A stretch of DNA of 64,000 nucleotides from Gemmatimonadales bacterium (lineage in GTDB: Bacteria; Gemmatimonadota; Gemmatimonadetes; Gemmatimonadales; GWC2-71-9): NCBI GenBank assembly GCA_036522815.1, contig DATDFC010000140.1:4243-68242 (forward strand). The letters are read 5' to 3'. Position 1 is the stretch's first letter. Every line of letters begins with the position of its first letter. A model generated the notes under the pieces. That model was not told the origin of the DNA, did no database searches, and saw only the letters and a list, made by a program, of their open reading frames with translations. The translations under genes and the position numbers were made by a program. Positions 1,698 to 32,549 of the stretch are shown piece by piece.

Positions 1698-2471
1698 CTA
1701 TTCGATGAGCCCACGCTGCTGCGCGTGAGTCACCGCCTCAAGGCGGGTGTGGGTGCGGAGCTTGCGGTTGATGTGGTGCAAGTGGTTGCGGAGCGTCTGC
1801 GCGGAAATGCTTAGTTTGCGGGCGATGGTCGTGGAGTTGCGGCCTTCGGCGAAAAGCTTCAAGATGCGGCGCTCCTGCTCGGAGAGCGGCTCGACGGGGG
1901 CGTGATGGGCCTCGTCGCCGGCGAGATCAACGAGTTGTCGGGCGAGGTCGACCATGCGGTAGAATCGCTCCTCGTTACGCCGGCGCTGGTCGACGTCGCG
2001 CTCCAACCGCACGAAGAGTCGCCGTCCTGTGCGCTGGTTGTCGAAGACGATGGTTGAGACGTTCACCCAAATCCGGCCCCTAGACTGGGTGCGTACCTCC
2101 AAGTCGAAATTCGGGATTACGCCGGACGTTCCGTCCCAGCGACGGGTCGCCGCTTCCGCGCCCCCTGCGAGCGCGCTGGTGCCCAACGTGTCGCGCGCCT
2201 CGAGCACTTCGTCGATGTTGCGGTGGAGCACCTCGCTCGCCGAGTAGCCGAACAGCCGCTCCGCGGCTCCGTTCCAGGAACAGATCTCGCCACTCTCGGT
2301 GACCGTGTACGCGGCGTCCGCCGTCTGCTCAAGCAGCGCAAACAACTCCGTTTCGAGCATTCCTCGCCTCGCGACCTCCTCGGCCGGAAATGCTAGCGCT
2401 TCAGCGCCACGTCGGCCAGACCGGTGTCCCGCGCAGGACACGCGTCTCTCCACACGGTACGAACGCTTCAT
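1698..2471 (-). CDS. PAS-domain LuxR-family transcriptional regulator
   Basis: C-terminal LSEQERRILKLFAEGRNSTTIARKLSISAQTLRNHLHHINRKL is a LuxR/GerE helix-turn-helix. The N-terminal half is PAS-like (ICSWNGAAERLFGYSASEVLHRNIDEV). The start was set at MKRSYRV (2471) because that N-terminus is retained in the duplicated relic at 20690. Confidence 0.8.
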   Translation of the reverse strand: MKRSYRVERRVSCAGHRSGRRGAEALAFPAEEVARRGMLETELFALLEQTADAAYTVTESGEICSWNGAAERLFGYSASEVLHRNIDEVLEARDTLGTSALAGGAEAATRRWDGTSGVIPNFDLEVRTQSRGRIWVNVSTIVFDNQRTGRRLFVRLERDVDQRRRNEERFYRMVDLARQLVDLAGDEAHHAPVEPLSEQERRILKLFAEGRNSTTIARKLSISAQTLRNHLHHINRKLRTHTRLEAVTHAQQRGLIE

Positions 2472-2559
2472 TGTCGGCTCAGGGGCCCCGCCATAACCAT
2501 ACTCCGTCGCACAACGCACTCAGAGAAGCTCGGCATTCCCTTGTAAAGGAGCCTCAAGT

Positions 2560-5448: not shown

Positions 5449-6216
5449 TCATCGAGCAGTGCCTCGTCGAAGTGCGGCCGCCGCGGGCGCGTCGACGAAC
5501 CAGCGCACGCGCCCGGCGGTGGGTGCGATCAGCTGGGCGGGCAGTCGGTGCGGTTGCCTGGGGCCCTCCAACACCTGCCGCAGGATGGCGGCCTTGGCGA
5601 CGCCCGTGACGAGAAAGGCGACCTCGGCCGCCGCATTGATGATGACTGGGCTGAGCGTGACCCGCCACGCCGACACCGCTTCCACGTATTCAGCCGTCAC
5701 CCAGCGCTGACCGTCGTGAAGTGCCGCCGCGCCCGGGAAGAGCGACGCCGTGTGCCCGTCCTCGCCCAGACCCAAGAGCACGAGGTCGATTCGCGCCCCG
5801 GGCGTGTCACGCGGGGAGCCCGTTGGCGTCCGGAGTACGCCTCGAATTACTCGCTCGTAGCTGGTGGCCGCTTCGGCAGGATCGTCTTCGCCGGAGATCC
5901 GGTGCACGTTCGCCGCGGGGATAGGTACATGGTCGAGCAGCGCCTCGCGTGCCATCCGATAGTTGCTCGCCGGGTGGTCCGGCGGCACACAGCGCTCGTC
6001 ACCCCACAAGACCTGGACTCGCGACCAATTCACGTTCGAAGCAGCAGGCTCTACCGCGAGTCGTGCGTACACGCTCCGCGGGGTTGATCCACCCGACAGC
6101 GCCACCACGAACTCTCCACGCGCGCGAATCGCGTCGTCGGCGGTCGCGACGAATCGTCGGGCCACGGCCTCGGCGACGAGAGAGGCGATCGGAAACACCT
6201 CGAGCTCGAAACCCAT
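5449..6216 (-). CDS. pgl: 6-phosphogluconolactonase
   Basis: VVALSGGSTPRSVYARLA, WGDERCVPPDHPASNY and LVLLGLGEDGHTASLFPG are hallmark SolR/DevB-family motifs. Confidence 0.85.
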   Translation of the reverse strand: MGFELEVFPIASLVAEAVARRFVATADDAIRARGEFVVALSGGSTPRSVYARLAVEPAASNVNWSRVQVLWGDERCVPPDHPASNYRMAREALLDHVPIPAANVHRISGEDDPAEAATSYERVIRGVLRTPTGSPRDTPGARIDLVLLGLGEDGHTASLFPGAAALHDGQRWVTAEYVEAVSAWRVTLSPVIINAAAEVAFLVTGVAKAAILRQVLEGPRQPHRLPAQLIAPTAGRVRWFVDAPAAAALRRGTAR

Positions 6217-11832: not shown

Positions 11833-12831
11833 TTACTGGCTCATCTCCGCCCGACACCGCTCCGCCGCGACTGCCGCAGCGCCGAGCAGTCCGACGCTGC
11901 CATTCGTGATGACGCCGACGGGGACGCGGCGCATGAAGGGGGAAAGGCGCCCCTTGGCGCGAAACGCGGCCAGAAAGGGCCCGTTCTTGAGCTTCGTCAC
12001 GATCCGCGGCGCGATCCCCCCGGCCACGAAGACGCCGCCCGTCGCGAGAGCGGTCAGGGCCAGGTCCCCCGCCACCGCGCCGAGCAGCGAGGTGAACCGG
12101 TCGAGCGCAGCGGCGCAGAGCGGATCCGTTCCGTCCAGACCGTGCTGCACAATGACGGCCGCGGGATCCTGTCGACCCATCTCAGCCCGGACTGCGTCGT
12201 TCTCCACGACGAGGCCTGCCGCCGCGAGATGCCGGTAGATGGCGATCAGGCCGGGTCCCGAAACGACCCGCTCGCGGGAGACACGCCCGAACTCATCCTG
12301 CAGCGAGCGGCGGAGCTCCCACTCGACCTGGTCACGCGCCGCGAACTCCGCATGCCCACCCTCCGACGCATGGACGCGATAGTGGCCGCCATCCCAGGAG
12401 AGAAACGCCTCCCCGAGCCCCGTGCCCGCGCCGATGAGCGCGACGGGGCCGTGGGCGATCGGCTCTCCATCTTGGAGGGTCTCGACGTCCTTCGGCCCGA
12501 GCAGGGCGAGCCCGTGACCGACGGCGTCGAAGTCATTGATGACGGAGGTATGGGCGATCCCGATCGCCGCAGCCAGTTCGCGCTCGTCTATGGTCCACGG
12601 CAGGTTGGCCGTCCGGGCCACGCCGTCGATCACGCGGCCGGCGACCGCGAAGCAGGCCCACTCGAGTGACCTCCCCGCTTCCCCGAGGAAGCGCTGCACA
12701 ATCGGCGCGAGGCCGGGAGCTTCCTGAGACGCGAACCGCTGCTCTCCTTCAATGCGCGCGCGCCCGCCATCGACATCGATGATCGCGAGCCGTGCGTTCG
12801 TGCCACCGATGTCGCCGGCGAGCACTCTCAC
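11833..12831 (-). CDS. glk: Glucokinase
   Basis: N-terminal RVLAGDIGGTNARLAIIDV ATP-binding motif. The GTG start overlaps the glgA stop (GTGA), and its stop abuts the GH15 start. Confidence 0.85.
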   Translation of the reverse strand: MRVLAGDIGGTNARLAIIDVDGGRARIEGEQRFASQEAPGLAPIVQRFLGEAGRSLEWACFAVAGRVIDGVARTANLPWTIDERELAAAIGIAHTSVINDFDAVGHGLALLGPKDVETLQDGEPIAHGPVALIGAGTGLGEAFLSWDGGHYRVHASEGGHAEFAARDQVEWELRRSLQDEFGRVSRERVVSGPGLIAIYRHLAAAGLVVENDAVRAEMGRQDPAAVIVQHGLDGTDPLCAAALDRFTSLLGAVAGDLALTALATGGVFVAGGIAPRIVTKLKNGPFLAAFRAKGRLSPFMRRVPVGVITNGSVGLLGAAAVAAERCRAEMSQ

Positions 12832-14402
12832 GGCGCCTCCGCGCTGTGCCTCGTGCGCGCGGACCGCGACGCCAGCGCTCGTCCATACACCTGCACATAT
12901 CCCTCGGCGGAGCGCCGCCAGCCAAAATCCTGGCTCATCGCTACGTGCATCATTCGCTCCCAGGAGCGTCCTTCCGCGTAGCGTTCGATCGCCCGCCGCG
13001 TCACGCGCGCGAGCGCCGCCGGCGCATACTCGTCGAACAGAAAGCCGGTCGCTCCGTCCTCGATCGTGTCGGCCAGCCCACCGACGCGACGAGCCACCGG
13101 AATGGTGCCGTAGAGCTGCGCGCGCATCTGTGTCAGGCCGCAGGGCTCATACAGTGACGGCATCAGCAGCATGTCCGCCCCCGCCAGCAGCTCGTGCTCG
13201 ACTCGATCGGTGAAGGTAACTTGTGCCGCGATGCGGTCGGGCGCGGCGGCGGCCCAGTCGGTCAAGGCCTGTTCATAACGCCTCTCCCCCCCTCCCAGAA
13301 ACACGAATTGCGCGTCGCGTGTGGCCAACAGATCGCCTCCCAGAATTAAGTCGAGGCCTTTCTGTGCGACCAGGCGCGCGCTCATCGCGACTAGCGGGAT
13401 CAGGGGGGTGGGTGCCAGACCGAAGGCCCGCTGCAGCGCGGCCTTGCAGCGCCGCTTGCCGGCCAGGTCGGCCGGCGAATACGGCGCTGGAATCGCAGGG
13501 TCCGCCTGGGGATTCCAGACGGCGCAATCGATTCCATTCAATATCCCGACGAGCCGATCTCCGAGCGCGGCAAAGCTGTCATCGAGCCCGAACCCACCCT
13601 GCGGCGTTCGCAGCTCTCGGGCATGCGACGGACTTACCGTGACCACGGCGTCGGAAAACGCCAGGCCACCTTTCAGGACGTTCATCTGGCCGAACCACTC
13701 GAGCGCCCGCCAATCGTAGAGCTCCGCGGCCAGTCCGAGGTCTGCGACGGTGTCGGGTGGGAAATGCCCCTGAAACCCCGCGTTGTGGACCGACAGCACC
13801 GTGCCCAGCCGGTCGTAGTCAGGCTCTCCGGCGTGCGCGGTCCGCAGGTAGACCGGAGCCAGGGCCGCATGCCAGTCGTGCGCGTGTAGGATCCGAGCGG
13901 GCGGCGCGATCCGGGGCAGTACCGCGAGCGCCGCTCGGGCGAACAGCGCGAATCGCCGGGCGTTGTCCGGGTAGTCCGACCCCTCCTCGCCGTAGATGCC
14001 CGGTCGATCGAAGTAGTCCTGGTGCTCGATGAAAAAGACGGCCGGGCCGGGACCGGGCTCCGCGAGCCGGAACAGTCGTGCGCCTTCCACCCGCGGTCCC
14101 ACTTGGACCGGAAAGGGAGGGCCAACCGGATGGAGGCGGGATGCGACCTCTCGCACGCTGCGATGCAGCGGCATGACGACCGTGGTCGACATCCCTGACG
14201 CCGCTTGAAAGCGGGCCAGACCGCTGACCGCTTCACCCAGTCCCCCGGTTCGCGCCAGCGGCAAGTACTCCCACGCGAGGTGGACGACCCCAACACGCTG
14301 CGGGTGCTGCGGCGCCGGCGCGGGAACAATGCCGTCCGGGAGCCGCCGCGTGGCGGCACCGTGGCGTGACGGCGCGAGCGTGCTGGTTTGTTTGGGGGTC
14401 AT
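12828..14402 (-). CDS. glgA: Glycogen (starch) synthase
   Basis: VVHLAWEYLPLARTGGLGEAV (K/R-TGGL motif) and C-terminal MPSLYEPCGLTQMRAQLYGTIPVARRVGGLADT. The start was set at the ATG at 14402, preceded by GAGGTGG. Confidence 0.85.
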   Translation of the reverse strand: MTPKQTSTLAPSRHGAATRRLPDGIVPAPAPQHPQRVGVVHLAWEYLPLARTGGLGEAVSGLARFQAASGMSTTVVMPLHRSVREVASRLHPVGPPFPVQVGPRVEGARLFRLAEPGPGPAVFFIEHQDYFDRPGIYGEEGSDYPDNARRFALFARAALAVLPRIAPPARILHAHDWHAALAPVYLRTAHAGEPDYDRLGTVLSVHNAGFQGHFPPDTVADLGLAAELYDWRALEWFGQMNVLKGGLAFSDAVVTVSPSHARELRTPQGGFGLDDSFAALGDRLVGILNGIDCAVWNPQADPAIPAPYSPADLAGKRRCKAALQRAFGLAPTPLIPLVAMSARLVAQKGLDLILGGDLLATRDAQFVFLGGGERRYEQALTDWAAAAPDRIAAQVTFTDRVEHELLAGADMLLMPSLYEPCGLTQMRAQLYGTIPVARRVGGLADTIEDGATGFLFDEYAPAALARVTRRAIERYAEGRSWERMMHVAMSQDFGWRRSAEGYVQVYGRALASRSARTRHSAEAP

Positions 14403-14419: not shown

Positions 14420-14498
14420 CGTTACGCGAATAGTCACGGGCGGCGTGGCGGAGCGCCAATAGCCCGTTCGTACCATAGGCGCCAACGCCAGTCACCGG
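14420..14498 (-). repeat. Conserved ~80-nt intergenic element, copy B
   Basis: Minus-sense core ATGGTACGAACGGGCTATTGGC, in the 90-nt gap between tkt and glgA. The 5' GTGA of the element contains the tkt stop codon. Confidence 0.8.
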
Positions 14499-20006: not shown

Positions 20007-20341
20007 GTCGTCGCCTCAACCGCGCCGACGCCATGGCTGGCCAGCGCCCGCTCGAACCACTCACGGATCGCCTCGTCACATCCCAGGGCCGATTCTGCGA
20101 GCACTGACGCCCGCGCCGTTGTTGCTGGCCCTTGTTGGGTCGCACACCACGCCGCCTCAAACGAGGGGAGCGTCGCGGCCGCTTCCCCGTGGACGAGCTC
20201 GAGCGGAAACGGGCGAGTCCGAAACGTCACCTTGCCTTCGTACTCCTTGGCCACACGGTGCAGTCGCACGGCAGCGATGTAGCACCAGGGGCAATAGTAC
20301 TCCGCCCACTCCGAGAGCTCGGGAATCGGCCGGTCATTCAT
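20003..20341 (-). CDS. DsbA/FrnE-like thioredoxin-fold protein (short, possibly truncated)
   Basis: The EYYCPWCYIA CxxC motif resembles DsbA-family oxidoreductases. At 112 aa it is roughly half the usual length. Confidence 0.5.
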   Translation of the reverse strand: MNDRPIPELSEWAEYYCPWCYIAAVRLHRVAKEYEGKVTFRTRPFPLELVHGEAAATLPSFEAAWCATQQGPATTARASVLAESALGCDEAIREWFERALASHGVGAVEATT

Positions 20342-20469
20342 AGAGCACGACGCCCCAAGTAGCTAGGAGCACTCCGCCGAGGGCGAAGCGGGCTGCAATG
20401 AAACGGGCATCGCGAATAGGATTGCTCCTCAAGAACGGCGACGTGTTCAACGTAGGACGGTACCGCGTG

Positions 20470-20550
20470 CGTTGACAGGGCGAACACTCGCGAGCTGCGC
20501 GGCGCGGGCCAATAGCGCGTTCGTACCATCCACGTCAACAGCGATCACGA
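20470..20550 (-). repeat. Conserved ~80-nt intergenic element, copy C
   Basis: Minus-sense ...GTGATCGCTGTTGACGTGGATGGTACGAACGCGCTATTGGCCCGCG...TTCGCCCTGTCAACG, upstream of the dsbA-like/HAD/tal/pgi/tkt gene string. Confidence 0.85.
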
Positions 20551-20615
20551 GGGTGCGGGTGCAGAGCTTGCGGAGTGGCGGCCTGCGGCCAAGAGCATCA
20601 GGATGCAGCGCTCCT

Positions 20616-20690
20616 GCTTCAGCCCCACCTCGGCCAGACCGGCATCCGCGCGCAGGACGCGCGTCTCTCCTCACGGTACGAACGCTTCAT
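20616..20690 (-). pseudogene. Duplicated 5' relic of the PAS-LuxR regulator gene
   Basis: Aligns with 2398-2471 (MKRSYR.ERR.SCA...) but hits a stop after ~23 codons. It is part of the 2398-3063 / 20616-21223 segmental duplication. Confidence 0.65.
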
Positions 20691-20774
20691 TGCCGCCTGG
20701 TGTGCCACGCCCTAACCATACTCCCGTAGCGCTACGCAGTCAGAGGAACTCTCCATACACTAAGGAGATCACGC

Positions 20775-21200
20775 ATGAACCGTCTCGCCCTTACCGCCCT
20801 CGCCGGCGTGCTCGGCGTCGGGATGCTCGTCGCGTCCCCCGATACCACGGCGGCTCAGCAGAAGGCGCCGCCCGGCGGTGCCTACAAGAAGGTCAGCACG
20901 CTCGTCCCGCTTCCGGATTTCGTCCCCGGACTCGGCACCCTGTACGTCGATCCCGCCACGCTGCCCGCGGGGCCGTTTCTCGCCTACGACCACCAGGGCA
21001 ACCTGGTGAGCTCCATCTACATGATCCCACTCAAGGACATGAACGCTCAGCAGGCGTTCAGCGACCTGAAGGTGGCCCGTGAGCGCGCTGATCACGTGGA
21101 CATCGTCTTCAACGCGGGCCATCCGGGCGTGGCGGAGCCGCACTACCATGTGATCGTGTGGTACATCTCGCCGCAGCGCGCGGCCCTGCTCGCCAAGTGA
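20775..21200 (+). CDS. Secreted protein of unknown function (paralog 2)
   Basis: MNRLALTALAGVLGVGMLVASPD signal peptide. Near-identical to 2560..3039 but lacks the 18-aa insert. AAGGAG lies upstream. Confidence 0.75.
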   Translation: MNRLALTALAGVLGVGMLVASPDTTAAQQKAPPGGAYKKVSTLVPLPDFVPGLGTLYVDPATLPAGPFLAYDHQGNLVSSIYMIPLKDMNAQQAFSDLKVARERADHVDIVFNAGHPGVAEPHYHVIVWYISPQRAALLAK

Positions 21201-25652: not shown

Positions 25653-26210
25653 ATGGCGGCGACCGTGGATTCCGAGGTCGTTGTACTGACTGTGGGCCAT
25701 TCGACACGGCCACTGGTCGAGTTCATTGCGTTGTTAAAGGCCCACTCGGTGGCTCGGCTCATTGACGTGCGCACCGTGCCACGCTCTCGGCACAACCCGC
25801 AGTTCAACCGCGATACTCTGGCGGCCGCGCTCGCGGCCACTGGCATCGGCTATGAACACGTTGCCGGCCTGGGAGGATTCCGGCGCACACACCCGGGGTC
25901 CACGAATACGGGATGGCGCAACGTGTCCTTCCGCGGTTACGCCGACTACATGCAAACCGCTGAATTCGCGGAGCGCCTCGCAGACCTCATCGCCGAGGCC
26001 AGACGCGAGCGCCTCGTGCTGATGTGCGCCGAGGCCGTACCGTGGCGCTGCCATCGCTCACTGATCGCCGACGCGTTGCTGGTGCACGGTTTGCGCGTCG
26101 AGGAAATCGTCAGCGGGACGCGTCGCCAGGTACACGCGCTGACCCCCTTCGCCAAGGTCAGCGACCTGCTAATCACGTATCCGCCGGAAGCGTCGCCGTC
26201 TCGAGCGTGA
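25653..26210 (+). CDS. DUF488 family protein (long form)
   Basis: VLTVGHSTRPLVEFIALLKAHSVARLIDVRTVPRSRHNPQFN and LMCAEAVPWRCHRSLIAD. Confidence 0.75.
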   Translation: MAATVDSEVVVLTVGHSTRPLVEFIALLKAHSVARLIDVRTVPRSRHNPQFNRDTLAAALAATGIGYEHVAGLGGFRRTHPGSTNTGWRNVSFRGYADYMQTAEFAERLADLIAEARRERLVLMCAEAVPWRCHRSLIADALLVHGLRVEEIVSGTRRQVHALTPFAKVSDLLITYPPEASPSRA

Positions 26211-26290
26211 TGGATGTTGACGTTGATGGTACGAACGAGCCATTGGCCCGCGTCGCGCACAGCGCCACCATTCGCCTAATCAAGTGACAC
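26206..26290 (+). repeat. Conserved ~80-nt intergenic element, copy D
   Basis: Plus-sense CGTGATGGATGTTGACGTTGATGGTACGAACGAGCCATTGGCCCGCGTCGCGCA...ATTCGCC. Its 5' GTGA contains the stop of the DUF488 gene. It lies ~80 nt upstream of the PQQ dehydrogenase start. Confidence 0.8.
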
Positions 26291-26367
26291 GCCAGAACTG
26301 TCGCCAGTAAAAGGCCGCGACCGGAAGCGTGCGAGAGAATAACACTCGACCTTTAACGGAGGTGGGT

Positions 26368-28071
26368 ATGACGCATTGGACTCGATGGTCCGCGATTGCG
26401 GTGGTCGCGTCGCTGATCGCGGTACCGCTGTGTGCGCAGTCGCACACCGCCGTGACAAATGACATGCTGCTCAACGCCGCGAGGAGCAGCGACTGGCTGA
26501 TGTATGGCGGCAACTACTGGAACAACCGGTTCTCTCCATTAAAGCAGATCAACACGACCAACGTGAAGCGCCTTGTTCCGCGGGCGATCTACACCCATGG
26601 TTCGAGCACTCTCGGCAGTTTTGAGACCACGCCAGTTGTCGTCAACGGCATCATGTACATCACGTCGCCCGTGAAGCCCAACAACATCGTGCGGGCGTTC
26701 GATCTGCGGTCGCAGAAGATGCTGTGGGAACACGTGCACAAGACCGGGCCGGTCAGCACCGCATGCTGCGGCTACAACAACCGCGGCGTGGCGGTAGCGA
26801 ACGGCATGGTCTACGTCGCGACGTTGGACGGCCAAATGATCGCGCTCGATCAACAGACCGGTGAGGAGAAGTGGGCAGTGCAGGTCGGTGACCCCGCGGC
26901 TGGTTACACCTTCACTATGGCGCCGCTCGCGATTGGCGACAAAGTCATCGCCGGGACGTCTGGGGGAGAGTACGGAATTCGTGGCTGGGTGAAGGCCTTC
27001 AACGGCGCGACGGGCGCGCTCGCGTGGACGTGGTATTCAATCCCCGCGCCGGAGGATGGCGGCTGGTGGGGCACGTGGGCTAAGACCACGCCGGAGGGCA
27101 ACGACCTCCATCGGGACATCGCGAAGGAGAAAACCGACTCGGCCAAGTACGCTGACGCCTGGCAGAATGGCGGCGGCGGGGTGTGGATGACGCCGGCCTA
27201 TGACGACGCCACGAAGACGCTATACGTCGCGGTCGGCAACCCATCGCCCGACCTAGACGGCTCGGTCCGCCCGGGTGACAACCGCTGGACCGATGGCATC
27301 GTCGCCATCGACGTGAACACCGGCAAGTTCAAGTGGGGCTATCAGACCGTGCCGCACGACGTGTGGGACTTGGACGCGGTGAGCCCCCCCGTGATCGTCA
27401 TGGTCGACGGCAAGAAAGCCGTGGTCCACGCCGGCAAGACGGGCTGGGTCTACGTCCTCGACGCGGCGACCGGGAAGCTGATCAGGAAGTCGGACGCGTT
27501 CGTCCCGCAGCAGAACATGTTCGCGCTCCCGACTCCCGAGGGGACGTTCATGCTTCCGGGCGCTAACGGTGGCTCGGAGTGGTCCCCAATCGCCGTGAAC
27601 CCGGGCCTCGCCTACGCGTACACGGTCGGCCTGCATCAGCCGATGCACTACAAGACCCACTATGCGCCGTGGGAGAAGGGTCGGGTGTGGCTGGGATCCG
27701 CCTTCTTGCGAATCCCGGACGACAAGGGCGACTTCTCTGGCGAATACGGTAACGTCAACGCGATTGACCTGAAGACCGGGAAGATCGCCTGGTCGGTGAA
27801 GACCGAGCAGCCAATGATGGGCGGCGCGACTGCCACGGCAGGTGGGCTGGTGTTCACCGGCGAGGGCAACGGCTGGTTCAAGGCCTACGACGCCAAGACC
27901 GGCGCGGTCCTGTGGAAGTTCAACTGTGGCGCGGGCGCGAACGCCGCACCCTCTGTGTTCGAGGTTGACGGCGAGCAGTTCATCGCCGTGGCCGCGGGCG
28001 GGAACTTCCAGCTGAGCTTCCCACTGGGCAACACGGTCTTCGTCTTCGGGCTGCCGAAGACGGGGAGGTAA
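26368..28071 (+). CDS. PQQ-dependent alcohol/methanol-family dehydrogenase (type I quinoprotein, no haem domain)
   Basis: Signal peptide; WLMYGGNYWNNRFSPL; the vicinal disulfide ACCGYNNRG; repeated W-motif blades; WDLDAV around the catalytic Asp. GGAGGTG lies before the ATG at 26368. Confidence 0.85.
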   Translation: MTHWTRWSAIAVVASLIAVPLCAQSHTAVTNDMLLNAARSSDWLMYGGNYWNNRFSPLKQINTTNVKRLVPRAIYTHGSSTLGSFETTPVVVNGIMYITSPVKPNNIVRAFDLRSQKMLWEHVHKTGPVSTACCGYNNRGVAVANGMVYVATLDGQMIALDQQTGEEKWAVQVGDPAAGYTFTMAPLAIGDKVIAGTSGGEYGIRGWVKAFNGATGALAWTWYSIPAPEDGGWWGTWAKTTPEGNDLHRDIAKEKTDSAKYADAWQNGGGGVWMTPAYDDATKTLYVAVGNPSPDLDGSVRPGDNRWTDGIVAIDVNTGKFKWGYQTVPHDVWDLDAVSPPVIVMVDGKKAVVHAGKTGWVYVLDAATGKLIRKSDAFVPQQNMFALPTPEGTFMLPGANGGSEWSPIAVNPGLAYAYTVGLHQPMHYKTHYAPWEKGRVWLGSAFLRIPDDKGDFSGEYGNVNAIDLKTGKIAWSVKTEQPMMGGATATAGGLVFTGEGNGWFKAYDAKTGAVLWKFNCGAGANAAPSVFEVDGEQFIAVAAGGNFQLSFPLGNTVFVFGLPKTGR

Positions 28072-30263: not shown

Positions 30264-30947
30264 GTGGGCGCTCGCATCGCGGCCATCCCTGACGCGCAAG
30301 TCTCTCCACTGGCCCGTGGGACGCTGGTGGGCGGCATCGCGGTCCTGGCGATCGCGATCTCGCCTCCGTTCGACCGGATCGCCGACCGATTCCTCACTGC
30401 CCACATGGCCCAGCATCTCCTGCTGACTCTTGTCGCAGCGCCGCTGCTTGTGGCAGGGGTCGGTGCGTGGCAGCCGCTCTGGGTCACGCTCGAGAAGCTG
30501 GTTTTGGGGCGCGGAGGCGCAGCCCTCGGGCGTGTCCTCACGCACCCACTTGTCGCTTGGGTGATTTCGGCCGTCGTGCTCTGGGCCTGGCACGCCCCGC
30601 AGGCCTACGACGCGGCGCTCGCCGACGACCGCGTGCACGCCGCCGAGCACCTTTCGTTCGTAGTCGCTTACGTGCTTTACTGGTGGCCACTCCTCGGGAC
30701 CGGCGTGGCCGAGCGGTCGAACGCATTTCGGGCCTTCTACCTCCTTGCAGGAACCGCGACGGGCGGATTGCTCGGCGCGTTGCTCACCTTCGCGCCGGGC
30801 GCGTGGTACGCTCATTACAACGCCATACCCAGCCCAACAGGCCTGTCGCCCCTCGCCGACCAGCATCTCGCGGGAGCGGTCATGTGGCTCATCGGTGCGG
30901 TACCGTTCGCGCTGATTGGGGTGGCCGTGCTGCGGGACGAGGGCTAG
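30264..30947 (+). CDS. ctaG: Cytochrome c oxidase assembly factor CtaG (Caa3_CtaG family) membrane protein
   Basis: FLTAHMAQHLLLTLVAAPLL, VLWAWHAPQAYDAAL and ADQHLAGAVMW motifs. The GTG start at 30264 is inferred. Confidence 0.65.
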   Translation: MGARIAAIPDAQVSPLARGTLVGGIAVLAIAISPPFDRIADRFLTAHMAQHLLLTLVAAPLLVAGVGAWQPLWVTLEKLVLGRGGAALGRVLTHPLVAWVISAVVLWAWHAPQAYDAALADDRVHAAEHLSFVVAYVLYWWPLLGTGVAERSNAFRAFYLLAGTATGGLLGALLTFAPGAWYAHYNAIPSPTGLSPLADQHLAGAVMWLIGAVPFALIGVAVLRDEG

Positions 30948-31957
30948 TGGCGAGGCGGCGGGTTTTCTCCGGTATCCAGCCGACAGGGAAGCTCCATCTG
31001 GGCAACTACATCGGCGCGATCAGCCTCTGGGTCGCGGCGCAAGCGGAGCACGAGGCGATCTTTTGCATCGCTGACCTCCACGCTTTGACGATTCCCGAGG
31101 CCGCGCGGGCTGCTCACCTCCGGGCCAAGGTGCGCGAGACGGCGGCCGTTCTCGTCGCCTGCGGGATCGATCCGGCTCGCGCGATTCTTTTCGTGCAGTC
31201 GCATGTCCCTGCGCACACACAACTGGCATGGCTCCTCAGCTGCGTGACGCCCGTCGGCTGGCTCGAGCGCATGATTCAGTTCAAGACTCGGTCCGCCGCG
31301 CTCGAGAGCGTGGGCACAGGACTACTCGCGTACCCGGTGCTGCAGGCGGCGGACATCCTGCTCTATCGGGCCGATCTCGTCCCGGTCGGTGAGGATCAGC
31401 AGCAACACATCGAGTTCACCCGCGACGTCGCAAGGCGATTCCACGCGCTGTTCGGACAGGTGTTCACGCTCCCGGAATCGATGCTCCAGCCGAGCGGCGC
31501 GCGGATAATGGGTTTGGACGACCCCAGCACGAAGATGAGCAAGAGCCGGGGCGAGACCCGGCCGTATCACGCCATCGGCTTGGTCGATCCCCCCGATGCG
31601 ATCCGTGACGTCGTCATGCACGCGGTCACCGACTCCGGGCGAGAGGTGCAGCCAGAGCGTGCGTCCCCGGGCGTAACCAATCTCCTGAGGATCTACGAGC
31701 TGCTGTCGGGCCGCCGCAGCGACGCCGTACAGGCGGAGTTCATGGGAAAGGGTTACGCAGTCTTGAAGCGTGCGGTTGCGGACTTGGTCGTCACGACGCT
31801 CGAGCCCATCCGGCGGCGGTATCTAGATATTGCAGCCGAACCGGGGCGGCTCGATGCGGTACTTGATGAGGGTGCCGAGCGCGCCCGCCCACTCGCTGAC
31901 GCGACGCTCGATCGGGTCAATCAGCTAATGGGCTTGGAAGAGGGAACCCAGGATTGA
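30947..31957 (+). CDS. trpS: Tryptophan--tRNA ligase
   Basis: RVFSGIQPTGKLHLGNYIGA (HIGH-type motif) and KMSKS. The GTG start overlaps the ctaG stop by 1 nt. Confidence 0.9.
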   Translation: MARRRVFSGIQPTGKLHLGNYIGAISLWVAAQAEHEAIFCIADLHALTIPEAARAAHLRAKVRETAAVLVACGIDPARAILFVQSHVPAHTQLAWLLSCVTPVGWLERMIQFKTRSAALESVGTGLLAYPVLQAADILLYRADLVPVGEDQQQHIEFTRDVARRFHALFGQVFTLPESMLQPSGARIMGLDDPSTKMSKSRGETRPYHAIGLVDPPDAIRDVVMHAVTDSGREVQPERASPGVTNLLRIYELLSGRRSDAVQAEFMGKGYAVLKRAVADLVVTTLEPIRRRYLDIAAEPGRLDAVLDEGAERARPLADATLDRVNQLMGLEEGTQD

Positions 31958-32205: not shown

Positions 32206-32478
32206 GCGACCAAACGCGCCGGGCTCGCGGGCATGTTGGTGCATGACCTCCGGCGCACGGCCGTGCGAGATTTTCGACGCGCCGGCGTGTCGGAGGGTGA
32301 GATCATGAAGCTCTGCGGGTGGCGGACGCGCTCGATGTTCGATCGCTACAACATCATCGACGAGGCGGACCTCGCCGCAGCCGTGGCGAGGCGGTTTGGC
32401 AACGGCAAAAAAACCGCAGACATAAAGCCTTCCGCGCTCGCCCCGGATTCTGTAACTTCCAGCCGCAGCGATTCTTAG
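32206..32478 (+). pseudogene. C-terminal fragment of a tyrosine recombinase (phage-type integrase)
   Basis: LVHDLRRTAVRDFRRAGVSEGEIMKLCGWRTRSMFDRYNI carries the box II His/Arg and the catalytic Tyr. Sequence upstream of ~32206 is not integrase-like, so the N-terminal two-thirds are missing. Confidence 0.7.
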
Positions 32479-32514
32479 GTCCGTAGCTCAATTGGTAGAG
32501 CACCGGTCTCCAAA
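32361..32514 (+). repeat. Right copy of direct repeat (integrase 3' tail + tRNA-Trp 5' half)
   Basis: Partner of 423-549; see that feature. Confidence 0.9.
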
Positions 32515-32549
32515 ACCGGGGGTTGCAGGTTCGATTCCTGCCGGGCCTG
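32477..32549 (+). tRNA. trnW: tRNA-Trp (anticodon CCA)
   Basis: Hand-folded cloverleaf. The acceptor stem AGGTCCG/CGGGCCT has one G-T pair. The D-arm is GCTC-AATTGGTA-GAGC and the anticodon arm is CCGGT-CTCCAAA-ACCGG. The T-arm is GCAGG-TTCGATT-CCTGC and the discriminator is G. CCA is not encoded. Confidence 0.9.

Follow-up and report, generated by a model that had tools for sequence, protein, structure and literature searches.

The window analyzed here is a 64,000-nt stretch of contig DATDFC010000140.1 from a Gemmatimonadales bacterium, in which four intergenic regions each carry a copy (A to D) of a conserved element of about 80 nt. The element is built around a 22-nt core, ATGGTACGAACGNGCNATTGGC, located at 1600-1621 (copy A), 14455-14476 (copy B), and 20508-20529 (copy C) on the minus strand and at 26226-26247 (copy D) on the plus strand. 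All four were exact matches in a search that allowed up to three mismatches, and no additional match appeared; 100 dinucleotide shuffles gave an expectation of 0.00 core matches, compared to the 4 observed. A sequence-only reading of the window had pointed out the ~80-nt similarity, the near-invariance of the core, and the position of every copy between genes and oriented toward its downstream gene, all of which were borne out: the alignment shows a GTGA start, TGTTGACG, and the core in all copies, and TTCGC in B, C, and D. Among A, C, and D, the similarity runs ~50 nt farther downstream than that reading said. The downstream genes it had named were checked by Pfam. Copy B precedes glgA, glk, GH15, gnd, zwf, rpiA, and pgl; copy C precedes genes for a DsbA-like and a HAD protein followed by tal, pgi, and tkt; copy D precedes genes for a pyrroloquinoline quinone (PQQ) dehydrogenase and COX1; and copy A precedes a gene for a Prok-JAB protein, an assignment that is weak (Pfam E value of 2.7e-5, just short of the cutoff). 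Copy A also lies downstream of a gene (1698-2360, minus strand) for a 220-aa PAS-LuxR regulator, which combines a PAS domain with a GerE-type helix-turn-helix (HTH) and has a copy of a sister class of the element (class 2, described below) on its upstream side.

Alignment of the collected copies of the element (class 1) resolved three conserved blocks: a distal box, the core, and a downstream hexamer. The distal box, GTGATGnnTGTTGACG, lies at approximately -71 to -56 relative to the predicted transcription start and is kept as cgTGAtg..GTTGAcg in the 18 non-redundant class-1 copies. Within the core, a GGTAC pentamer at approximately -50 to -46 (-53 to -41 with its flank) is invariant. Four features of these copies bear on the function. 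First, the hexamer nAnnnT follows TTGGCn at a spacer of 17 nt in 16 of the 18 copies, drawn from many genomes, and at 18 nt in the other 2; at the remaining offsets from 10 to 26 nt it occurs only 0 or 1 time each. The copies with the 18-nt spacer represent two families, copy B among them. Second, A2 and T6 of the downstream hexamer are invariant, as in CACTAT, GACTAT, GAGTGT, CACCAT, and AATCCT. An A2/T6 hexamer at a fixed spacer is what characterizes -10 elements of the sigma-70 type, and therefore the 3′ end of the core corresponds to the -35 hexamer. Third, the start codon lies anywhere from 25 to 214 nt past the -10 hexamer, a spread that is expected of a promoter and unexpected for a leader with a fixed structure. 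Finally, every non-redundant copy is followed within 500 nt by a co-oriented open reading frame (ORF) with a ribosome-binding site. The hexamers and their spacing (TTGGCn, 17 to 18 nt, nAnnnT) are of the sigma-70 type, but they are weak by consensus standards, because a strict scan with the E. coli consensus found neither a promoter nor a nearby terminator in the 12.3 kb that contains copies B, C, and D. That the element acts at the DNA level as a promoter, with its -35 at TTGGCn and its -10 at nAnnnT, is well supported, and we consider it likely.

This register differs from the promoter considered in the sequence-only reading, TTGACG-N18-TATTGG. The -10 of that promoter lacks T6, and an upstream hexamer of this kind is missing from the sister class; the -35 is now placed at the 3′ end of the core and the -10 is placed 17 to 18 nt farther on, just 5′ of and one base into the (A/T)TTCGC box that the reading had described. 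Under the new register, TTGACG is an upstream box at a predicted position of about -61 to -56. The same reading had favored a shared promoter, operator, or 5′ leader. The promoter or operator part of that idea stands, and the leader part does not, since the start codon follows at varying distances and neither structure nor covariation was found.

The four copies in the window can be laid out as follows. In copy A (minus strand), the distal box GTGATGGCTGTAGACG, read from the sequence and the alignment, is at 1625-1640, the -35 hexamer TTGGCT is at 1599-1604, and the predicted -10 hexamer AATCCT is at 1576-1581, after a 17-nt spacer. In copy B (minus strand), the distal box GTGACTGGCGTTGGCG (14480-14495) is followed by the -35 hexamer TTGGCG at 14454-14459 and, after an 18-nt spacer, by the predicted -10 hexamer GACTAT at 14430-14435; the ATG of glgA is 27 nt farther on, at 14402. 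Copy C (minus strand) has the distal box GTGATCGCTGTTGACG at 20533-20548 (~-71 to -56 from its predicted start), the core ATGGTACGAACGCGCTATTGGC with GGTAC at 20523-20527, the -35 hexamer TTGGCC at 20507-20512, and the predicted -10 hexamer GAGTGT at 20484-20489 after a 17-nt spacer, which would place the transcription start at ~20477. Copy D (plus strand) has the distal box GTGATGGATGTTGACG at 26207-26222, the -35 hexamer TTGGCC at 26243-26248, and the predicted -10 hexamer CACCAT at 26266-26271 after a 17-nt spacer; the PQQ dehydrogenase gene starts with the ATG at 26368. As the sequence-only reading had noticed, the 5′ GTGA supplies the stop codon of the preceding gene in two copies: its TGA, which belongs to the distal box, ends tkt in copy B (14494-14492) and the DUF488 gene in copy D (26208-26210).

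Additional boxes are found around and after the predicted start in copies A, C, and D (1561-1575, 20461-20483, and 26272-26300, respectively). These share CCTGTCAAyGGCAC, and A and D alone have a further box, ACTGTCG, ~20 nt past it. The part of this sequence common to A, C, D, and their orthologues is TGTCAA, at 20472-20477 on the minus strand (~+1 to +6) in copy C. It is the inverse of the distal TTGAC and could thus conceivably serve as a second operator or in looping. The start-site boxes are kept only among the paralogous promoters of this lineage and come without RNA structure.

Since the element is intergenic, co-oriented, and highly conserved, a structured RNA was also weighed, namely a 5′ leader, a riboswitch, or a small RNA made from an upstream promoter such as TTGACG-N18-TATTGG. 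The preservation of TTGAC upstream and the self-complementary GC-rich spacers of several copies would suit such an RNA. The folding analyses point the other way. RNAalifold on 17 copies gave 8 weak pairs, 0 compensatory changes, and -6.1 kcal/mol, in line with the sequence-only reading, which had seen no conserved hairpin; the leader alignment covering the boxes of A, C, and D gave zero consensus pairs; and the spacers folded like their shuffles (mean z of -0.6 and +0.1). That reading had also recognized no RNA family, and Rfam returned no match at the element, either at gathering scores or at an E value of ≤1, and none in the related loci; the sole Rfam match in the window is a tRNA gene at 32477-32549 (plus strand). 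In some copies, the start codon comes just 25 to 28 nt after the downstream hexamer. Given also the lack of T6 in the presumed upstream -10, the variable start distance, and the lack of a nearby terminator, a structured cis-regulatory RNA is very improbable.

Class 2 was found by a profile search and direct reading, which added two copies in the window. In common with class 1 it has GGTACGAACGC, three variable bases, and ATTG; the pattern shared by the two classes is GGTAC-N9-ATTGyC. The upstream part differs from that of class 1 and consists of a GGACrCGCGTC palindrome 20 nt upstream, and the -10 is AAyCAT at a spacer of 18 nt in 16 of 25 copies. Class-2 copy 1 (2436-2500, plus strand) comprises the palindrome GGACACGCGTC at 2436-2446, GGTACGAACGCTTCATTGTC at 2456-2475, and the -10 AACCAT at 2495-2500; it is divergent from the PAS-LuxR gene and precedes a small secreted-protein gene (ATG at 2560). 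Class-2 copy 2 (20655-20719, plus strand) comprises GGACGCGCGTC at 20655-20665, GGTACGAACGCTTCATTGCC at 20675-20694, and the -10 AACCAT at 20714-20719; it is divergent from copy C and precedes a paralogous small secreted-protein gene (ATG at 20775), whose product has a weak, subthreshold Pfam match to TTHB210-like proteins. Each class-2 copy is ~60 nt upstream of its gene. When the generic motif GGTAC-N9-ATTGBC was searched with up to one mismatch, it gave six matches in the window, all of them class-1 or class-2 elements, compared to 1.9 in the shuffled window, or 0.11 once the -10 was also demanded. The region to the right of copy C (20600-20800) duplicates the region upstream of the PAS-LuxR gene (2390-2600) and appears to retain a remnant of the regulator promoter and 5′ leader (ccggtctggccga.gtgg.gctgaagc) with no regulator gene after it.

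A scan for the exact core in one genome per species (185,579 species) found 18 loci, and the genomes concerned have one or two copies each. Sixteen of these are labelled Gemmatimonadales or Gemmatimonadetes. Of the other two, the match in a Peregrinibacteria metagenome-assembled genome (MAG) lies within a long ORF, lacks the flanks, and looks like chance, and the match in a bin labelled Pseudonocardiaceae has the full element. The element is therefore a low-copy, lineage-specific element and not a dispersed repeat. The sequence-only reading had named hundreds of copies, in random orientation and inside genes, as the outcome that would speak for a repetitive extragenic palindrome (REP) or a miniature inverted-repeat transposable element (MITE); the exact-core scan gave one or two per genome. 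The occurrence of several copies within one region would fit such a repeat, and the elements share with REP/MITE repeats that they are short conserved intergenic DNA repeated in a genome. They are unlike them in that they are few (6 elements in 64 kb), always precede a co-oriented gene, have no palindromic stem, and carry promoter hexamers in a fixed register. Orientation relative to genes was constant, BLAST against plasmids gave no match, and no terminal inverted repeats were seen, although no dedicated search for them was run.

A relic of coding sequence was considered together with the repeat, because the variable positions of the core are spaced 3 nt apart. One frame, WYERAIGPRRA, had already been reported as closed, and it indeed lacks a start codon and, in 16 of the 18 copies, is cut off three codons upstream by an in-frame TGA. 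The only open frame, frame 2, reads VDVDGTNALLA and recalls the glucokinase motif DIGGTNARLA of the Glk N terminus. However, its variable bases fall at second codon positions, and its third positions are invariant across genera, which is not the pattern of a protein-coding sequence. We consider a mobile element or a coding relic extremely improbable. The real glk gene of the window (start at 12831) carries GGCACGAACGC at 12794-12804 on the minus strand, where DIGGTNARLA is encoded by GGTGGCACGAACGC, resembling GATGGTACGAACGC of the core. This resemblance is probably a coincidence, because the variation pattern of the core is noncoding.

The architecture extends beyond the exact core. In a Longimicrobiales genome it is kept with a changed center (GGTACGTGTGTGCTATTGGC, 17 nt, GAATTT), and the same motif stands before related operons and is kept at orthologous promoters across species from Gemmatimonadales to Longimicrobiales. 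The recurring targets are the PQQ dehydrogenase/oxidase, glgA, dsbA-tal-pgi-tkt, PrpD, and GAPDH operons. A metagenome scan with a pattern that covers both classes and fixes ~16 bases gave at least 120 loci. The downstream genes were clustered for contigs with at least 60% G+C, including class-1, class-2, and unclassified matches. Among the matches listed, the first downstream gene encoded a small secreted protein in at least 36 copies, a PQQ dehydrogenase in at least 15, a DsbA-like protein at the head of a HAD-tal-pgi-tkt operon in at least 10, a JAB-like protein in at least 8, GlgA in at least 6, and a PrpD-like protein in at least 5; the other first genes listed encode HAD proteins, tryptophanyl-tRNA synthetase (TrpRS), and proteins of no known function.

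The gene that recurs beside the motif is that of the PAS-LuxR regulator. The protein encoded in the window is identical to HEY6158177.1 from a Gemmatimonadales MAG. It has 2928 homologues, of which the best 120 cluster representatives are all at least 76% identical and include proteins labelled Gemmatimonadaceae and Longimicrobiales. Among the matches listed, at least ~40 motif-selected loci have the PAS-LuxR gene directly beside a copy, usually with class 2 ~95 nt upstream and divergent and with class 1 just past the regulator stop codon. The same adjacency was found with a GerE-domain query and by protein searches. As a control for circularity, seven loci (131 kb) were fetched via the regulator protein alone and not via the motif. 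These contained 10 generic motifs with a correctly spaced -10, compared to 0.26 expected, and 9 of the 10 were intergenic by independent gene calls. Downstream of the motifs are genes for CMD-GAPDH, PrpD, PQQ dehydrogenase (twice), and DUF4142, a COX2-COX1-SCO1 operon, and small genes. Upstream of the regulator gene and divergent from it, five of the seven genomes have either a class-2 element or what is left of a degenerated one. The GGTAC pentamer and (C/T)ATTG(G/C/T)C are kept in these loci, and the five bases between them (GTGTG, GTTCG, AAACG, or AGACG) vary, as does the variable block. Two ideas about the PAS domain were tried and dropped: a LOV sensor, since the NCRFLQ motif is absent, and a heme sensor, since the similarity to EcDOS/DosP is weak (E value of ~4e-5) and no matching proximal histidine was found by eye.

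We propose that the copies function as double-stranded DNA, each one a compact promoter cassette. Its -35 hexamer, of the sigma-70 type, would be TTGGCn, made up of the final five bases of the core and the base that follows them; 17 nt on (18 nt in copy B) would come a loose -10 in which only the critical A2 and T6 are kept, and transcription is predicted to start ~7 nt past the -10 hexamer. The GGTAC box and the distal box would be bound by a transcription factor, which would touch RNA polymerase from a position immediately upstream of the -35. This assignment draws on the position of the boxes, the weak hexamers, and the regulon-like set of targets. The weakness of both hexamers relative to the consensus makes an activator the most likely kind of factor. 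Its leading candidate is the one-component PAS-LuxR regulator encoded next to copy A, whose PAS domain would sense a signal. The sequence-only reading had suggested this neighbor as the first protein to try, and the comparative data strengthen the suggestion: the linkage holds across orders, the conservation of the protein matches that of the motif, and there is a precedent for binding in the -35 region in Streptomyces. Even so, we hold this identification tentatively, at somewhat less than even odds. The predicted co-regulated set comprises the glycogen and pentose phosphate genes, dsbA-HAD-tal-pgi-tkt, the PQQ dehydrogenase/oxidase operon, and the genes flanking the regulator gene. The whole account, an activated promoter cassette with factor sites and the PAS-LuxR protein as the leading candidate, builds on the observed conservation, promoter geometry, intergenic and co-oriented placement, recurring targets, and regulator linkage, and we give it a probability of roughly 0.6.

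Several points weigh against this account. First, an invariant -35 hexamer is unusual for activator-dependent promoters and could mean a specialized sigma factor. Second, the core has no dyad, whereas most characterized LuxR/GerE dimers, including PimM, bind palindromes. Third, the collection scans demanded GGTACGAACG, so that the conservation of GAACG is partly a selection artifact. Fourth, the linkage is not perfect in the loci chosen by protein: in one (L146) no copy adjoins the regulator gene, and in another (L140) the only nearby copy aims at its 3′ end. The regulator gene itself could be just a target of another factor. Finally, the start of transcription, the positive sign of the regulation, and the choice of binding protein are predictions from sequence.

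The possibility that another factor is involved gains some weight from promoters of the same geometry outside the phylum. One family has a perfect dyad, GGTACGAACGTACC, fused to ATTGnC, with a 17-nt spacer and TATACC (L095, L132, L032, L121, L094, and other loci), and lies upstream of a highly conserved gene for a 1083-aa PAS-GAF hybrid histidine kinase, relatives of which are labelled Candidatus Acidiferrales (Acidobacteriota). A CTAAGTG...GAATGT block farther upstream is also conserved in this family. Other, GC-rich GGTAC-box promoters precede operons of NarL-type regulators and kinases (9951-10003 in L148; region of 3490-3509 in L026). These have a second GGTAC 22 to 23 nt upstream and a GTG start codon 6 to 7 nt past the -10, so that the mRNA of this operon is probably leaderless, a layout that would give independent, if indirect, support for the predicted start site. 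The out-of-phylum matches may be one ancestral chance match multiplied by related contigs; the same register of the motif to the -10 suggests a functionally analogous arrangement. A LexA-like or CRP/FNR-like dyad was also tried for the box and rejected, since GGTAC-N4-GTACC is perfect only in the Acidobacteriota variant, Gemmatimonadota have no second half-site, and the targets are not SOS genes.

No PAS-LuxR gene is visible at the NarL-type and PAS-GAF kinase promoters. This, the asymmetry of the box, which is unlike known PAS-LuxR operators, and the lack of a correctly placed copy beside the regulator gene in two of the seven protein-chosen genomes would be explained if the promoter and boxes were as described but GGTAC were read by a different activator or repressor, with the PAS-LuxR gene being merely one of its targets. 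However, no other regulator gene recurs beside the motif; most loci, across orders, have a copy on one side of the PAS-LuxR gene or on both; and GerE-type HTH proteins occur in two of the three gene contexts. A different factor thus appears unlikely, though by no means negligible.

Alternatively, the conserved 20 to 22 nt could be an extended -35 that a dedicated alternative sigma factor reads without the help of a transcription factor, which would account for the invariance of ATTGGC and its upstream flank compared to the loose -10 and for the failure to call a consensus sigma-70 promoter anywhere nearby. Yet the -10 keeps A2 and T6, the housekeeping signature, rather than the CGTC of the extracytoplasmic function (ECF) type or the GC of sigma-54. 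In addition, GGTAC lies 10 to 15 bp upstream of the -35, out of reach of sigma region 4, and the five bases after it differ between genomes. A dedicated sigma factor is improbable on these grounds. The two specific promoter types that come closest were both rejected. For a sigma-54 promoter (TGGCAC-N5-TTGC, with GG and GC 10 nt apart), the GC is one base too close in TGGTACGAACGnGC and absent in class 2. For an ECF promoter (GGAAC-like -35 with a CGT-type -10 16 to 17 nt on), nothing is conserved at that distance after GAAC, and GAAC itself varies in the protein-chosen loci. The preferred reading remains a housekeeping-type promoter with separate factor sites.

Among known systems, the closest in protein build are PimM, PteF, and their relatives from Streptomyces polyene clusters, which likewise have an N-terminal PAS domain and a C-terminal GerE/LuxR HTH in ~200 aa. 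The PAS-LuxR activators of Streptomyces reportedly bind target promoters at the -35 region (PMC9774167), and as is predicted for the binding here, a single PimM- or PteF-type regulator has operators at the -35 of several promoters and serves several operons (PMC9774167). The operators themselves differ. That of the PimM type is a 16-bp palindrome, CTVGGGAWWTCCCBAG, and the element here is asymmetric, GGTAC ... ATTGGC with a second box upstream, so that it is similar in its position near the -35 and unrelated in sequence. The Streptomyces targets belong to secondary metabolism, in contrast to the central carbon and respiratory genes found here in another phylum.

Activators that bind next to or over the -35 are well known, for instance, FNR and CRP at -41.5 and LuxR at the lux box at -42.5. 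Their promoters likewise have a site in a fixed register just upstream of or touching the -35 and weak core hexamers, and the second site ~16 to 20 bp farther upstream here recalls tandem class I plus class II arrangements. However, FNR, CRP, and LuxR sites are dyads of 14 to 20 bp that usually replace the -35, whereas here a good, invariant TTGnC is kept and the GGTAC box in Gemmatimonadota has no convincing second half-site. Sites of the NarL/GerE family are heptamers, TACYYMT, in a 7-2-7 arrangement. The TAC within the box and the GerE-type HTH genes beside the motif are reminiscent of them, but neither the sequence nor the spacing fits: the Acidobacteriota variant GGTAC-N4-GTACC amounts to TAC-N4-GTA, compared to TAC-N10-GTA for the NarL type.

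No description of the motif or of Gemmatimonadota promoters or regulons was found in the literature searched, and the only matches to the motif sequence string were primers. As a regulon motif it is previously undescribed, but its kind is well known and does not amount to a new class of biology. Little genetic work exists on Gemmatimonadota despite their abundance in soils, and the promoters (TTGnC, 17 to 18 nt, nAnnnT) offer a first sequence-level view of transcription initiation signals in this phylum. They also define a testable regulon that joins carbon storage, the pentose phosphate pathway, and periplasmic and respiratory oxidation, with the HEY6158177.1-type PAS-LuxR protein as a named candidate regulator, and the motif can aid annotation by flagging where operons start in MAGs, even at internal promoters that directly adjoin the stop codon of the gene before. 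A bolder extension is that GGTAC-box promoters form a phylum-wide master regulon in which one conserved PAS-LuxR sensor uses an asymmetric two-box site locked to the -35; we regard this as possible but doubtful. If it is true, the regulator would couple a signal, possibly redox or oxygen, to glycogen and pentose phosphate metabolism, periplasmic PQQ-dependent oxidation of sugars and alcohols, and terminal oxidases in Gemmatimonadota. The GGTAC-N9-ATTG promoters of Acidobacteriota and NarL-type operons would then point to an old, cross-phylum mode of recognition between GerE-family regulators and RNA polymerase.

Some smaller observations concern individual loci. Copy C and the DsbA-like gene (ATG at 20341) are separated by a leader of ~135 nt, which contains a 15-codon ORF (MPVSLQPASPSAECS) preceded by GAGGAG at 20363-20410 on the minus strand. 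In L006 (1210-1300, plus strand), L008 (7740-7850, plus strand), and L017, a long conserved leader (ccggtccgtattccggtcaggcgactgaccgagc..ggcgcgcgagtcg..) with no Rfam match lies between a class-1 promoter and a small secreted-protein gene. In the close relatives L004 (616-675, minus strand) and L012 (3035-3095, minus strand), a diverged class-1 copy (GATGGTACGAACGCACTCTTGGCC) is found ~125 nt upstream of the PQQ dehydrogenase promoter; in the window, this position is taken up by the end of the DUF488 gene. In L003, a class-1 element (5575-5638, minus strand) lies right before the TrpRS gene and back to back with a diverged second copy (5657-5727, plus strand). A class-I tRNA synthetase gene of the Trp/Tyr type is also present in the window at 30467-31957 (plus strand), downstream of the PQQ dehydrogenase and oxidase genes and on the same strand as copy D.

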